This document shows positions 12,385-64,000 of a DNA stretch of 64,000 nucleotides, piece after piece (the stretch's first letter is position 1; each line of letters begins with the position of its first letter). The stretch comes from Octopus sinensis (taxonomy: Eukaryota), in the NCBI RefSeq assembly GCF_006345805.1, contig NC_042999.1:51026001-51090000 (forward strand), in the 5' to 3' direction. The notes under the pieces were generated by a model. The model saw only the letters and a list, made by a program, of their open reading frames with translations. It was not told the DNA's origin and searched no databases. Position numbers and translations under genes: made by a program.

Positions 12385-12730
12385 TCTAGTACACGTGTTT
12401 TCATTGCTAAAATGACCCTCCCAAAATGTATCTATTAAATATCATTTTGTCATAATTTTCTCTTTCAATATTTGTCTGAGTGCAAGGTCTTTTGGGTGCT
12501 TGGATAGGATGCGGATGTCAAGTTGACCCAAGTTGCCTCCATGGTGGGCTTTGGTCTGTTGGTAGAGTATGGAGGACTGTTTTTTTGTCATCATATTGTC
12601 TCAAATGGTCATTTAGTCATTCCACAATGCTGCTAGATGTTTCCCCTATGTATATCATGTTCATGTCTTTACAAGCACCTTCTATGCATCTTATACTGTA
12701 TACTACATTTTGAGTTCTGCTATATATCAT
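12385..12730 (-). pseudogene. Penelope-like element GIY-YIG endonuclease relic and 3' flank
   Basis: Reads TQNVVYSIRCIEGACKDMNMIYIGETSSSIVE*LNDH, then after a frameshift SILYQQTKAHHGGN...ILSKHPKDLALRQIL. This fits the PLE GIY-YIG pattern NVVY.I.C..C...YIGET.....R..EH. The TGA falls at the conserved Arg (CGA>TGA). Confidence 0.8.
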
Positions 12731-23714: not shown

Positions 23715-26811
<3,097 letters not shown>

Positions 26812-30733: not shown

Positions 30734-31814
30734 TCATCATCGTTTAACGTCCGCTTTCCATGCTAGCAATATATATATAAATTAGAGAAGAACCACTTTG
30801 TAGCAATTCAACAATGATGCAATTAAATCATAATATATAGAAAAAATTAAATATTCAATAAAAAAATATAACTATAATTAAGTAAAGTACAAAATAATAA
30901 ATAAATAGCATATAATTAGTAAAAAGACTACACGTGTTTCATGAATTTTTCCCTGTAAGTTTGGAATCATATTCCCTAATATTATTATTATTATTATTAT
31001 TATTATGTATATATTATATATTATATACACATGCACACATATTTCCCTTAAAGGGGATCAGATAATATACAGATTGAAACAGTTTAGATTAAAAAGCATG
31101 ATCAATGGTTGGTTTTCTTGTAACGATTCATTTTATTTTTATAAAATGGTCTGGACTCTTTAGAAATTCTTTACACGTTGGTCAAGTCCACTTTTCAACT
31201 TTGCAAAGTTAATAAAATGAGTAGCTGACAAATCAGTGTGGTCAATATAATTGGCTAAAAATTCAGGATGGTGCTCCTGTACAGCCACTGTCTGGTGGTT
31301 GATACTAGAAAAAGAATAAAAGGAAGTAACAGTTGGGAATTGGTCGAGCTTAATTTTAGAACAAATGATAAGTGTGTGCTAGAATATTTAAAGAGGAAGT
31401 GCAGAAATACTATTTCTAGTTGAAGTATCTTTTTCCCCCCACTGTATAGACTCAATGTAAGGAAACAGATAAGCTGGTGCATTAGTCCAGTCATTATTTG
31501 ATGGACACAAGTAGGAAAAGCACTTTGAAACATGACTGCTATTGAGGCAGGTCAGTAAAGCTATTATATTTTTAATAATATCAATGTAGCCTATTGGATA
31601 ATAATGTTCAGTTTAGTATCAAGATTCAATGGATTGGATATGAGACGTTTTGGCATTGTTGTTTTGGCACTGCCTATTTGGCATTGCTGATTCAACTCTG
31701 ACTTATTTGACATCAGACGTCTTAATTTTTCTCTAGTTGTCTCCCTTTTTCCCTCCTCCACATGCTCTCTCTCTCTCTTTTTCTCTTTCAATCTTTCCAT
31801 CTCTCTTTCTCTCT

Positions 31815-33005
31815 CTTTTAATTGTTTCAGTCATTTGATTGTGGCCATGCTGGAGCACCGCCTTTAGTCGAGCAAATCGACCCCAGGACTTATTCTTTGT
31901 AAGCCCAGTACTTATTTTATCGGTCTCTTTTGCCGAACTGCTAAGTGACGGGGACGTAACCACACCAGCATCGGTTGTCAAGCAATGCTAGGGAGACAAA
32001 CATAGACACACAAACATACACATATAAATATATATACATATATGCGACAGGCTTCTTTCAGTTTCCGTCTACCAAATCCACTCACAAGGCATTGGTCGGC
32101 CCAGGGCTATAGCAGAAGACACTTGCCCAAGATGCCACGCAGTGGGACTGAACCCGGAACCATGTGGTTGGTTAGCAAGCTACTTACCACACAGCCACTT
32201 GTATCGTTTATCTTTTATCTTTTACTTGTTTCAGTCATTTGACTGTGGCCATGCTGGAGCACCGCCTTTAGTCGAGCAAATCGACCCCGGGACTATTCTT
32301 TGTAAGCCCAGTACTTATTTTATCGGTCTCTTTTGCCGAACTGCTAAGTGACGGGGACGTAACCACACCAGCATCGGTTGTCAAGCAATGCTAGGGAGAC
32401 AAACATAGACACACAAACATACACATATAAATATATATACATATATGCGACAGGCTTCTTTCAGTTTCCGTCTACCAAATCCACTCACAAGGCATTGGTC
32501 GGCCCAGGGCTATAGCAGAAGACACTTGCCCAAGATGCCACGCAGTGGGACTGAACCCGGAACCATGTGGTTGGTTAACAAGCTACTTACCACACAGCCA
32601 CTTGTATCGTTTATCTTTTATCTTTTACTTGTTTCAGTCATTTGACTGTGGCCATGCTGGAGCACCGCCTTTAGTCGAGCAAATCGACCCCGGGACTTAT
32701 TCTTTGTAAGCCCAGTACTTATTTTATCGGTCTCTTTTGCCGAACTGCTAAGTGACGGGGACGTAAACACACCAGCATCGGTTGTCAAGCAATGCTAGGG
32801 AGACAAACACAGGCACACAGACACACACATATAAATACATATACATATATGCGACAGGCTTCTTTCAGTTTCTGTCTACCAAATCCACTCACAAGGCATT
32901 GGTTGGCCCAGGGCTATAGCAGAAGACACTTGCCCAAGATGCCACGCAGTGGGACTGAACCCGGAACCATGTGGTTGGTTAACAAGCTACTTACCACACA
33001 GCCAC
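31815..33005 (-). mobile_element. head-to-tail trimer of SINE family A
   Basis: Period 403-404 nt with the identical junction CAGCCACTTGTATCGTTTATCTTTTATCTTTTAC; an older fourth copy follows to ~33385. Confidence 0.92.
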
Positions 33006-33857
33006 TTGTATCGTTTATCTTTTATCTTTTACTTGCTTCAGTCATTAGACTGTGGCCATGCTGGGGCAGTACTTATTTGTTCTTTTTTAACCCTGGTACT
33101 CATTCTATCAGTCTTTTTCACTGATCAGCCAAGTTATGGGAATACAAAGACTTCGACACCAGTTGTCAAGCAAACACAGACATAAAGGCACACATACATA
33201 TTTATATATATATATACACATATATATATGATGGACTTTTCAGTTTCCGTCTATGTAATCCACTCATGAAGTTTCGGTCAGTCCAAGGCTAAAGTACAAG
33301 ACGCTTGCCCAAAGTGCCATGCAATAGGACTGAATCTGGAACCATATGGTTGGTAAGCAAACTTCTTACCGCACTACTATGTCTGCACTATATGTGTATA
33401 TTTCTGTATATGCATGCATGTGTGTATGTGTGTTTGCCTCTAGTGCCAAAAAGTACTGTCAGCAAAACTGGTTGAATGTCCAGTCAGCCATGTTAAATAG
33501 CCAGCATCCAGTCAGCCATACTCAATCATCTCATTTTATCAATAGATTTTTATCATAAGAGATGCAAACATGATTGTCTGGTTAAGAAGTTTGTTTAGCA
33601 GTCATGTGGTCTTGAGATCAATCCTGCTGCACAACTTGGGCAAGTGTCACCTAACATAGCCTCATTAAATAAGGTTCTTGTCAGTGAAATGTGATACGTG
33701 AAATCTGTGTGGAATTCCTTCAGAGGGATCATTCATGTTTTTGGATGGCATACTTAATCCATTGCTAGGTTTAACACTACCACCTGCCATATAGGTGTTC
33801 ATTTATTTATTTAATCTTTTATCTTTTACTTGTTTCAGTTATAGCCATGCCTGCACA

Positions 33858-37624: not shown

Positions 37625-37705
37625 GTCAACTGCCTGCTGTCAACTGCTGACTGTCAATTGCCAAATGTCAAATGCTAACTGTCAACTGCCAACTGTCAAC
37701 TCTGA
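37625..37705. repeat. 14-bp minisatellite GTCAACTGCCAACT x~5.5
   Basis: Read directly from the sequence. Confidence 0.8.
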
Positions 37706-38024
37706 CAGTTCTTTATTTTATTGAAATGTGTCAGTCCACTTTTAGTCATGCAGGGGTGGTGATCCTTCCACAACAGTTCTTGAGCAAAACCCTTCATTTC
37801 ACATTACTGAAATAGTTACCCTTTCAATCAGCAGGGAATATTGGCCTGCTGGCCTAGCCAGCAAGGTGGTGTCGCTCGAAGGCAAAAGAAATGATGCAAA
37901 GTGCATTGTGACAAGCAATGTGTAACAACATCTGATATTCTAGTCAGTCTTGTGATCATACACTCATGTGATATCAGCATTGATCATATAAGCCTAAGTT
38001 CAAAGGATATATAGCTATGATCAC

Positions 38025-38437
38025 TCTATCACTCCACCACCGCTCATGTCTCTTTGAGACATTTAGAAATTTACTATTTCTAATTACGGTGACCAGTGAA
38101 TAGATTTCACTGTAAATATATATATTTGTGAAGGCTGGTCAGGCACCTCAGTCAGCAGATCTCACTATCCTGTGCTGATGATGGGTTAAGACCCAGAAAC
38201 ATGCATGTCTTCAGGTGTGAATCTTGGCTGGTGGGGTTACTTGCCTCCCTTTCACAAATATAAGGACACAGGAAATGTGTCAAAGCCGACAGGAAGCGTC
38301 GATGCTTCCTAGGGCTAAACAGCAGTGGTGTAATTCCCATACGGGACTGTCACATTATGTTGACAGTATACAACCATTCTATCGCTCCACCACCGCTCAT
38401 GTCTCTTTGAGACAGTTAGAAATTTAATATTTCTAAT
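38025..38437 (+). mobile_element. retrozyme-like element: 353-nt unit plus 60-nt terminal redundancy
   Basis: 38025-38084 is repeated at 38378-38437 (3 mismatches). One central HHR and many internal hairpins. Confidence 0.75.
38169..38215 (+). ncRNA. type I hammerhead ribozyme
   Basis: cctgtg-CTGATGA-TGGGT-taag-ACCCA-GAAA-CATGCATG-TC-ttcagg. Predicted GUC cleavage after 38209; one mismatch in helix I. Confidence 0.85.
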
Positions 38438-41272
38438 CATCCTGCCTTAGTTTTGGGAATAATATCTTCCAGACTCCTTTATTCAGTGTTACATTTTTTA
38501 TGACAGTAAGATGTGATTTGAAAAAAATTTGGCTGTTATTTAGCAGGTTGGGCCACTACACTATGCTTCCTTATTGATTCATTACATTAATTTCAATTTT
38601 TGGCTCAAGGCCAGCAATTTTAAGGAAAGGGTAAGTCAATTATATCAACCCCAGTGATCAATGGTATGTATTTTATCATCCCAAGAAGATGAAAGATAGA
38701 GTTGAACTTGGCATGATTTGAACTCAGAACATAAGGATGGACAAAACGCCTCAAAGCATTTTGTCCAATATAATATTAATTCTGCCAGCTCACTGCCTCT
38801 CATTAGTTCATTATATTAAAAGTATTATATTAATAGTATTCAGTTGGCCAGAGACACCTACAGAATATCATGTGACTTTAGCAAAAATTCTTTTTGGATT
38901 TCAAAATATATTACTTAATAAATTGCAGAAAAGAATAAAAAAATTAATTTTCATTTTTACCAAAGCAAAATTAAAATTACTAACAGCAAAATTTTTTGGT
39001 GTAAATATTTTTAAATGAAGATACATTTCTACTTCTGATGGATTTTTATTAAAACATTTCATGTTATACAAATTATATCATAGTTAATTTCATCTAGGCT
39101 ATATTCTGTAATTATAATGAATTTCACATCAAATTTACTAATCTCTATTTTATTCTTATTCTCAATGCTAAGTGTTATTCTTTATTTGCCACTTTATTAA
39201 GTATCATTTTTACAGTTTCTCTGAGGAGGTTTTAGTGTTGTATGTATGTGGGTGTTACATTGTATGTTTGATTTTATTAAATATTGTTTAAATCAGTTGC
39301 TAACATCATAATAATATTTTTTACAGATTCCAGAGAAATTTACCCAGAAGATATGAAGATGTAAGAACCAATACAAAATGAGCTATCACCTACAGAAACA
39401 TAACAGGGATGAAATATCCACTCAAAAATATTAACTAAATATTAGATAAAAAATATGAATGTAATAAAAATTAAAATATTAAAATTCCAATTCCTTTTGA
39501 AAAATCCTCCTTTCATTAAGAAAATAATTAATCAGGTGTCAGAAGTATATGTTACAGGATAAATGATTTTTCTCCAATAAGAGTAAAATTTGACTATGCA
39601 TTGTTATGTATCAGTAATCTGACAGGGTGGACTAAATTAGTAACTCATCACTTGTTTTTTAATCACAACTCAGACTTGATTGAGCAGACCTATAGTCAAA
39701 GATTTTCTGACCTTGAGCATTCCATCTTTTGTTTTAAAACATAGTCTATTGAAGACCACATTATCTAATAAGACTTTTCTTTTCTTTTTTTTTTTATGTT
39801 AGGGTACATGTTGAAGAAAATTTGGCTGCTATTTCTAGTGAGTTGAGTGACCACAGAGAGATTGCCCTTCATTGGCTTGTAAATTTTGTGCTGATATTTG
39901 GTACAATTGTCTCATTAAGGATCCCTTTCTTTATATGACTTACAGGAGAAAGGGTAGCACCTGTGATCTTTTGAAGGACCTCAAAGACTTGGTTGGAGGG
40001 AAAAAGTAAAGTTATCCTTAGACCAGAGACTCTGCCTGAATATTTACAACAAAGTGGATATCATTAAAGGCATCAAGGGTCAGGTGATGTTAAACCAGGC
40101 TGTGGATTAATTCATTTGTGCATTCCCTAATTCACATAATTGTAGAGAATCAATAGAGTATCTGGTAATCTTATCTGCAATACATAGTGTTCTATACATA
40201 GATTTCTTTCATTCACAAACAGCACTGAAAGGAAAGTTGAACACCAGCTTTATGAGCTTGTGAAAACATCATTTATCATGCAAGTTCACATATATATAAT
40301 CAATAATAATTATATTCTCTCATGTTGAGTCAGGTCTAAGAAATCTTATTTTCTTTTCATGCTCAGAGTCTCAGAACAATAGCAGTAATATAGCACATAA
40401 CAATGAAGCCATTTCTTTACTTACCAATCTGAATCTAACAATTTTTGGTAGCAATGAAGAATTTGAAATGTTTCTAAACGTGTTGCTCAGCAAAGAAGAC
40501 TTCAGTTGAGATTGAAATACAAAAGCTTGATGGATTATCTTGAAACCTGATAAGACAAGAAAACTAATGTAGACAGAATTTTGATAGAAATAAAGAAGGG
40601 AAATTACATGCTTTCTATTATAGTTTATATAAATCTTATGAAAATAATTTTTCAATGCTAACTATTCATTCCAGAATATTCTAACTCTATGTGAAAATAT
40701 CATTGCTACTTCAATACTGGTAAACAACAAGGTAAAGCATTTCATGTGTAAATTACAGACTGAAAATTGGGAAATAGGTATATATCATATACCAGACATT
40801 CTATGCCCATTTCAATTATCCTTCTCTTGTTGAAAATCAATAAACAATATAGTTTAAACGTTCTAAAGAACTGCAAAATATAAAAAAGGGTAAAAAGAGA
40901 AATGGAAAAATTCTAATGGACTAATGAATTAGTCTTTAATCTAAATTGTAGTTCTGGTCAACAAATTTTTTGCTTTGAATAAAGTTTCCTGAAAACCATT
41001 AATAGTCAAGGAAACCAAGTTGTCTTTCCAAAACTACCAACTGCCTTTATACGTATATGTATTGACAATTAACGGAAATAGATGTTCACTCAATTGTATA
41101 AACATTACTGTGTATTTCAAGATGTTTTGATAGACAGAAAAAAAATTGAAAAAAAAGACATCAAATAAAATGAAAATACAATCAGAAAATAAAAATGTGT
41201 GAATATTGGTCTGTCCTTGTTAGCTTGTCATTTATATACCCCTTTCAATATATTTCTGTTTAAAAATTTATG

Positions 41273-57337: not shown

Positions 57338-57940
57338 CTTTGAGCCTCACAGAAGCTATGACGAAAGACCAAGACCTCTGGAGATATGCTGTGACTTCAA
57401 AGACCCGACAAATGAAGTGAGTTCACGGCTCGCAGGATGGTCTGCTGTGCTAACCTTGGATCGTAGAGTGACTCGCTGTTCTTGAGGATTCGAAGACCCG
57501 ACAAATGAAGTGAGTTCATGCTCGCAGGACAGCCTGCTGTGCTAACCTTGGATCATAGAGTGACCCGCTGTTCTTGAGGAGACCTGTTGAGTCAAGTTCT
57601 TTAACATCAAAAATTCGAATGGTAATTGTAGTTAAGATACCAGTGCTGGTGACACGTAAAAGCACTGTTCGAGCGTAGCAGTTGCTAGCATCGCTTGACT
57701 GGCGTCCGTGTCGGTGACACGTAAAAGCACCAACCGATCGTGGCTGTTTGCCAGCCTGCGATGGCACGTAAAAAATACCCACTACACTCACGGAGTGGTT
57801 GGTGTTAGGAAGGGCATCCAGCTGTAGAAACACTGCCAAATCAGACTGGAGCCTGGTGCAGCCTCCATGGCTTACCAGACCCCGGTTGAACCATCCAACC
57901 CATGCTAGCATGGAAAACGGACGTTAAATGATGATGATGT
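57338..57940 (+). mobile_element. RTE-type LINE 3' fragment with ~93 bp internal tandem duplication
   Basis: AAGACCCGACAAATGAAGTGAGTTCA occurs twice; shared 3' UTR and (GAT)n tail. Confidence 0.8.
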
Positions 57941-63560: not shown

Positions 63561-63605
<45 letters not shown>

Positions 63606-63939
63606 AAAACTTATATGGTAACGGACAATATGTCCAATTTTTTGCATATTTGGCATTAGAAATTTTTTCGTTTGCCCTTATTTATAAGTTGTTTATAATT
63701 TTAACTTTTAAAGGTATTTTTTAATATGCTGGCCATTGATAAAATTTTTTTTTTCGGAAAAAAAAATTTTATCCGGACTCTCTCACTCTGTGAGAGCCTC
63801 AGTTCAAATCGTACATGTCTTGAATGGGCTGGAGTATTTCTATTTTGGATGTATTTGGGGTACTTAATTGTGCTCATGACTTAGTGTTTTGCTTTTTCCA
63901 TGGGTATGAGTAAGTATCTCATTTATTTCTTTGCCACAT

Positions 63940-63999
63940 TTATTACTGATGAAGGGAGGGTTCTTATGAACCAACCCTGAAATCGGTCCGATATGGTAA
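63940..63999 (+). ncRNA. type I hammerhead ribozyme
   Basis: ttatta-CTGATGA-AGGG-ag-GGTTC-ttat-GAACC-aa-CCCT-GAAA-TCGG-t-CCGA-TA-tggtaa. Predicted AUA cleavage after 63993. Confidence 0.85.
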
Positions 64000-64000
64000 T

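Follow-up and report, generated by a model that had tools for sequence, protein, structure and literature searches.

Metazoan non-LTR retrozymes have been described as non-coding units of 150-450 bp with less than 50% GC, a type I hammerhead and a stable predicted fold, whose target duplications, when present, exceed 4 bp (PMC7229834). They occur in genomes that also hold Penelope-like elements (PLEs), and Cervera and de la Pena (2020; PMC7229834) named PLEs a strong candidate for moving animal retrozymes. More recently, Li, Clavereau and Pollet presented vertebrate retrozymes as non-autonomous PLE derivatives and left the mechanism open; one of nine vertebrate dimers tested was cleaved (bioRxiv 10.64898/2026.07.22.740005). 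PLEs themselves are well described. In rotifer Penelope, a tail is present on one inverted repeat, duplications measure 9-10 bp, and a partial tandem is joined by microhomology with no duplication (PMC3846280). An overview lists partial tandems, an inverted 5'-truncated copy, a tail at one end and a (TA)n bias (PMC8557442). For Poseidon of the green anole, the tail is bounded by two internal start sites, both target strands are cut and extended, and synthesis starts inside a stem loop that is AC-rich; insertion in vitro did not require ribozyme cutting, with uncut RNA as the main template (PMC11167929).

In this study, we examined a hammerhead element within a 64,000-nt stretch of the Octopus sinensis genome (the window) and the family to which it belongs. 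Like the metazoan non-LTR retrozymes (PMC7229834), the family has a non-coding unit in the described size and GC range, a type I hammerhead, a stable predicted fold, duplications (here of 10-14 nt) and PLEs in the same genome, and its short, palindrome-capped helix III is reminiscent of those amphibian ribozymes that cleave as dimers (PMC7229834). It differs in consisting mostly of scattered truncated monomers and inverted pairs, the longest seen being 2.1 units, whereas tandem arrays are reported for those elements; in being known from DNA sequence, whereas expression, cleavage and circles have been shown there; and in its fixed internal 3' ends, which the accessible portion of that source does not describe. 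With PLEs (PMC11167929, PMC3846280, PMC8557442) it shares two fixed 3' ends, a tail on one arm, a head-to-head copy, 5' truncation, partial tandems, duplications of about 10 bp or none, AT-rich or microsatellite targets, and a hammerhead upstream of the start sites. Its tail is longer (~55 nt against 30-40 nt in those sources), and unlike PLEs it has no ORF, has its ribozyme, of canonical three-helix type, set in a long rod, and has no matching coding partner among the loci sampled. The element class is that of the metazoan non-LTR retrozyme, a non-autonomous PLE, and both the class and the proposed PLE link are already in print. Our main reading, to which we give a probability of roughly 0.8, is of a dispersed non-LTR retrozyme family with two fixed 3' sites, likely inserted in trans by a PLE reverse transcriptase-endonuclease.

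The window element and its hammerhead

The insertion (Table 1) has 42.5% GC and a longest ORF, stop to stop, of not over 68 aa; the 353-nt unit within it has 43.6% GC and is non-coding. Unit position 1 is window position 38025; in the unit read as 38025-38377, 15 of the 353 places depart from the majority letter of the family. The two copies of the 63-nt repeat, identical at 59 of 63 positions with a spacing of 353, form a partial tandem and not an LTR. The first-pass annotation had described a 60-nt direct repeat of period 353 in an element starting at 38025; the period holds, but the repeat is 63 nt long, and its extent moves the start to 38022. The redundancy had also been assigned to the element, correctly, as the repeat recurs as family sequence in dozens of unrelated loci. 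Of the rejoined flanks proposed at the same time, only the 4-nt ATCA overlap is left: the flanks contain no target duplication of 9 nt or more. That the 5' end of this copy falls at site A is attributable to chance, 9 of 130 5' ends lying there where about 7 are expected. ARAGORN found no tRNA-like gene near the element. As for an empty site, none of the joints listed for contigs of four DNA-type runs (92 further joints being unlisted) crosses the element, a result that weighs neither way. The window copy is a slightly decayed, single-ribozyme member of a dispersed non-coding 353-nt hammerhead family, and an ordinary one, among thousands of dead fragments.

Table 1. Features of the element, in window positions
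Feature	Position	Strand	Remarks
Whole insertion	38022..38437	+	Single-arm, 5'-truncated family copy; 416 nt = 1.18 units
One complete 353-nt unit	38085..38437	+	Framed to finish at site B
63-nt repeat, 5' copy	38022..38084	+	Part of second unit copied before 5' truncation
63-nt repeat, 3' copy	38375..38437	+	Covers site A and tail as far as site B
ATCA overlap, 4 nt, at 5' junction	38020..38023 (again 38436-38439)	.	Microhomology
Long rod extending helix I	38121..38262	+	Subfamily changes concentrated here, several compensatory
Type I hammerhead	38169..38215	+	Helix I 38169-38174 with 38210-38215
Hammerhead core CTGATGA	38175-38181	+	
Hammerhead helix II	38182-38195	+	
Hammerhead GAAA	38196-38199	+	
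Short helix III with 10-nt palindromic cap	38199-38208	+	
GTC	38207-38209	+	Predicted cut 38209/38210
Rod base and two hairpins	38246..38319	+	Common to other hammerhead families; candidate protein-binding scaffold
Site A, first fixed 3' end	38369..38387 (unit positions 345-10)	+	55/130 arms; AC-rich, predicted unpaired
PLE-type tail, A to B	38383..38437	+	~55 nt with two short hairpins
Site B, second fixed 3' end	38430..38440 (unit positions 53-63), mode 38437	+	59/130 arms; window copy ends here

The hammerhead had been called intact, which is true of its core but not of helix I. At 38173 the window copy has T, found in 2 of 82 aligned copies against G in 77; the resulting U-U mismatch affects the second pair of helix I, close to the predicted cut, and this T is missing from nearly all contig depth in the four DNA-type runs. 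The catalytic fold reaches -5.9 kcal/mol in the window copy and -9.8 kcal/mol in the ribozymes of L006, a locus described below, and in both it is less stable than the local minimum free energy (MFE) structure. Rfam returned no hammerhead family in the whole window at gathering score, nor in the element at E<=10.

Across the family, 57 of 80 copies have an intact core, and 37 of 80 combine it with an intact six-pair helix I and helix II. Conservation is 98% at core positions and 86-90% along the rod. Helix I begins with a G-C pair in 49 of these 80 copies, an A-U pair in 25 and a G-U pair in 4, and has a gap there in 2. Over 51 aligned copies helix I is 98% paired, with three of its six pairs changed on both sides, and in the second subfamily it is different in sequence yet fully paired. 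This covariation of helix I across three subfamilies makes it likely that the ribozyme was under selection. RNAalifold gave only a weak, partial structure for the 51-copy alignment, with the catalytic fold absent, and pairs were therefore counted on the fold of the window copy itself, constrained to contain the hammerhead. Counted in this way and with kinship ignored, double-change cells total 92 over the whole structure, where shuffles give 33.8, while pairs that show a double change are no more numerous than in shuffles (72/500; kinship again ignored).

The unit folds far beyond chance, with an MFE of -130.8 kcal/mol (z -7.6; none of 100 shuffles as stable) and a circular fold at z -7.3; the minus strand also reaches z -6.0. 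All 11 stem word pairs reported at first pass were found at the places given. The accompanying description of the RNA as almost fully paired was an overstatement, as 66% of its bases pair, where shuffles give 61% (sd 2.7).

Several other repeats lie in the window. A second hammerhead-like core (CTGATGA...GAAA) is present at 63946-64000, the end of the window, and at L179:1447-1620, in an unrelated repeat that includes a partial direct repeat of 63600-63700 and is possibly a PLE terminus. A direct duplication of at least ~400 nt with a spacing of 1499 occupies 24200-26100, each copy holding a CTGATGA...GAAA word with an unconvincing helix III. In addition, we observed a 404-nt SINE-like unit in three tandem copies of 98% identity (31814-33068) and a 92-nt tandem repeat in two copies (57396-57580). 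A 7/14-nt minisatellite (37625-37713) lies 300 nt upstream of the element.

Family ends and insertion shape

A search of the same genome with the element gave 2176 first-look candidates, the best 40 of which were scored (83-96% identity), and further DNA searches with other element parts and subfamilies added loci. The main set consists of 81 loci, from which same-place duplicates and the apparent assembly duplicates L018, L095 and L108 are excluded; it contains 86 insertions, in which 130 arms were aligned; a second subfamily (L149-L178, 27 of 30 loci kept after removal of three repeats) was treated apart. As the loci are top-scoring matches, the sample is skewed to long, young copies. Related sequence is present in runs under four organism codes.

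Most arms of the family end at two places. Sites A and B together hold 114 of 130 3' ends within 30 of 353 positions, where 11 would be expected, and the same is seen for single-arm copies (45 of 49) and with a ribozyme-only query that contains neither end (20 of 27 arms in 17 loci). The ribozyme cut attracts no excess of ends, with 2 of 130 3' ends and 3 of 130 5' ends (4.1 expected). The 5' ends occur all along the unit; in 21 loci found with a 3' query, 22 of 37 fall at unit positions 200-260, a range limited by the query, and the base of the long rod near these positions may stall the enzyme. In the DNA-type runs, contigs cover the 3' part ~100-fold more deeply than the ribozyme, a difference due partly to the divergence of the rod between subfamilies.

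The insertions also have a characteristic shape. Head-to-head inverted pairs make up 37 of 86; by their outer ends, 30 of these are A+B, one is B+B, none is A+A and six have one end elsewhere. Where both outer ends lie at A or B, the pair is thus A+B in 30 of 31 cases (p = 1.5e-8 against 50%). The second subfamily, seen with a B-favouring query and in a poorer alignment, has three A+B pairs, one B+B pair and three with one end elsewhere. No tail-to-tail pair occurs among the 130 aligned arms in 81 loci. A flank word of at least 9 nt is repeated in 16 of 17 non-microsatellite inverted insertions, compared with 3 of 272 mismatched pairs; the duplicated words measure 10-14 nt with a mode of 12 and may take in a few element bases. 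A duplication is present in 6 of 33 non-microsatellite single-arm insertions. Microsatellites adjoin 36 of 86 insertions, against a background of 9-10%. At L153:607-1928, two adjacent inverted insertions have identical arm boundaries and the same right flank, which suggests local duplication of an insertion.

Read by analogy with described elements, two fixed 3' ends, inverted A+B pairs and 10-14-nt duplications are the published PLE footprint. Under our main reading, a PLE protein would nick both strands of AT-rich DNA ~12 bp apart and prime two cDNAs at internal points of the RNA; sites A and B, with one cDNA each, would be the starts of reverse transcription. Success of both arms would give an inverted insertion with a duplication; one arm alone would have its 5' end joined by microhomology, of which the window copy is an example. 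In that copy, the enzyme would have begun at B and run for 416 nt, through the ribozyme site and beyond one full unit. With a run only slightly over one unit, the 60-mer reported at first pass would be the tail and a few bases, repeated.

Template and source of the enzyme

Because the window copy runs through the ribozyme site for 416 nt, its template would have been uncut there and over one unit long, and 80 of 130 arms in the family cross the predicted cut site in the same way. Arms of at least 353 nt number 48 of 130, in a sample chosen for length. The tandem arrays looked for after the first-pass annotation are present as partial tandems of up to 752 nt, or 2.1 units; no long array was found among the best 40 of 2840 candidates. 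Repeated parts of 38 tandems have 174 non-majority letters in common where 52 are expected, and 42 opposite-strand pairs have 210 where 65 are expected, so both parts of an insertion derive from one template lineage. Such similarity within insertions fits a circle and a young uniform multimer alike.

A circle would be the simplest account of an uncut, long template together with ribozyme selection. We lean slightly towards a circle of 353 nt that a pair of hammerheads would release from a rare locus of dimeric type; L006 (L006:1501-2139, minus strand; G000:C3:93010535-93011173), which carries two intact hammerheads 354 nt apart, is an example of such a locus. Four of 130 arms span two ribozyme positions, and both are intact only in L006 (1 of 81 loci sampled). 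The window copy could not seed a circle, since its single, damaged hammerhead would be cut once at most, and by the preprint rule that an active retrozyme has two consecutive intact ribozymes (bioRxiv 10.64898/2026.07.22.740005) it is not an active retrozyme. It had been put forward as the best retrozyme candidate; with one hammerhead, a mismatch in helix I and no target duplication, it gives way to L006, which is the better candidate source locus.

Insertion by a PLE is also compatible with a template that was never circular, namely linear RNA read through a dimer or multimer locus and left uncut, or a single RNA used repeatedly through template jumps, and we consider this variant of the main reading, which does not conflict with it, a serious contender at a little under even odds. 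Partial tandems are normal in coding PLEs (PMC8557442), and the main in vitro substrate of the anole PLE is uncut RNA (PMC11167929). The greater stability of the alternative local fold over the catalytic fold points the same way, as do contigs from runs guessed to be RNA, which give no sign of a circle. In the run search, none of the holders of family sequence is on record as RNA; contigs of four runs guessed to be RNA contain it with the 3'-heavy profile of the DNA runs. The even coverage expected of an abundant circle is absent from these contigs, for which contig depth is a poor measure; they have no pile-up of ends and, among the pieces listed, none bridges the cut by a 31-nt rule. The profile could come from passive transcription of truncated copies or from DNA carried over, and is compatible with a circle as well as with its absence. 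Against a linear template, the subfamilies differ in helix I by compensatory changes, which implies a role for cutting, and a single cut with no re-joining would lose the 5' half of the ribozyme, yet the majority of arms cross the cut. Moreover, no master over 2.1 units was seen in the sampled loci, and circles have been demonstrated for comparable elements of coral, mussel and axolotl (PMC7229834).

The unit itself might instead be the pseudo-LTR of a coding PLE, all copies being its 5'-truncated pieces. All insertion features are PLE-like (PMC8557442, PMC3846280), and Xenopus retrozymes match PLE termini, which make up the best repeat matches of 21 of 57 families (bioRxiv 10.64898/2026.07.22.740005; the preprint's own count behind this figure is 24 families and 21 PLEs). 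Our searches, further, scored the best 40 to 150 candidates. Nevertheless, arms longer than one unit run into the previous unit, up to the longest tandem, and not into coding sequence. The same genome has many GIY-YIG elements, including an intact 765-aa ORF with reverse transcriptase (RT) and GIY-YIG, and in ~120 GIY-YIG loci, representing a handful of PLE families, none terminates in the unit or has a terminus homologous to it. These loci comprise 30 (two probably host genes), 90 (three of which repeat earlier ones) and two longer stretches. Three loci with scaffold matches, L087, L077 and L185, were considered as partner termini and rejected, as they are separate insertions of other families. 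Similarly, 49 free 5' flanks have no common sequence adjoining the element and no ORF attached. With neither a unit-ended GIY-YIG locus nor a common 5' flank in these samples, the family looks non-autonomous, and we regard the pseudo-LTR explanation as improbable. Attachment of fixed ends to a coding PLE had been named beforehand as the finding that would count against a retrozyme; the fixed ends are present, and an attached coding PLE was not found among the GIY-YIG loci and free 5' flanks sampled. One PLE relic was observed in the window itself, a frameshifted GIY-YIG fragment at 12445-12727 (minus strand), 72-79% identical to the L063/L078 family.

The first-pass annotation had gone further, interpreting the window copy as a circularly permuted cDNA from rolling-circle reverse transcription, inserted with freely permuted ends. 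Its placement among hammerhead retroelements of retrozyme type stands, as does a template of over one unit. Arms over one unit are indeed common in the sample, 5' ends occur across the whole unit and folding is strong, all as free permutation would have it, but the 3' ends are fixed at two sites and paired as A+B, and only the 5' ends vary. This contradicts permutation and makes the full model very improbable. Least credible of all is a repeat of DNA-level origin, whether satellite remnant, MITE or local duplication, in which the hammerhead-like motif arose by chance. In its favour are the lack of an Rfam match, the good folding of both strands and the possible mimicry of terminal inverted repeats by inverted arms with duplications; against it are unequal, variable arm lengths with different end sites, the ending of nearly all single arms at A or B, a core conserved above the rod and a covarying helix I.

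A shared scaffold and what the family records

Beyond the family, the rod base and two hairpins recur in at least three other hammerhead families of this genome whose ribozymes are different. L182:1117-2190 belongs to a separate 352-nt family with another hammerhead and has the inverted shape in a TA run. Over this scaffold, its alignment with the window unit scores 71.5, where 1000 shuffles reach a maximum of 39, and the 3' domain alone scores 54 against 29 in shuffles. Scaffold relatives are also found in L087 (1-420, read on the plus strand), which like L182 is an inverted insertion in a TA run, in L077 (near one end) and in L185. The shared scaffold may bind PLE protein. As a separate observation, L181:1736-5400 (minus strand; G000:C19) holds an apparently intact PLE that ends in a TA run, with two overlapping ORFs, one of 466 aa with no Pfam match and then the 765-aa ORF mentioned above, with RT, GIY-YIG and a CxxC-xxC linker. 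At its 3' end is a degenerate hammerhead-like motif that has GAAACATG in common with the family studied here.

A bolder proposal, which we put forward tentatively and consider on the unlikely side, is a superfamily of ~350-nt circular RNA parasites with exchangeable hammerheads, in which one scaffold would recruit a PLE protein dimer in trans, and the dimer would prime two cDNAs from the nicks of a staggered cut, always one at A and one at B of the same circle. If true, the scaffold, which has no likeness to the sampled coding PLE ends, would imitate the PLE recognition signal in structure, and an in vitro mobilisation assay would gain its first defined substrate from a retrozyme.

The family resembles the vertebrate retrozymes in its proposed PLE-driven movement and its many monomeric copies (bioRxiv 10.64898/2026.07.22.740005). 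The evidence differs, being co-occurrence and pLTR homology in that preprint and the insertion footprint here, where no pLTR homology was found. The main text of an octopus repeat annotation (PMC13282606) makes no mention of hammerhead, ribozyme or retrozyme, and in the open literature, supplements aside, we found no footprint quantified for a retrozyme; the family may already be catalogued in Repbase or Dfam. Since the class and the PLE footprint are both published, what is gained is a clean test case and not a new kind of element. The ends of the family record a mechanism, with two exact predicted starts, an A+B rule kept in 30 of 31 cases and a stagger of ~12 bp, and from these follow direct predictions for the published in vitro assay of PLEs. 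L006, in turn, is a natural two-ribozyme precursor for testing cleavage and circle formation.
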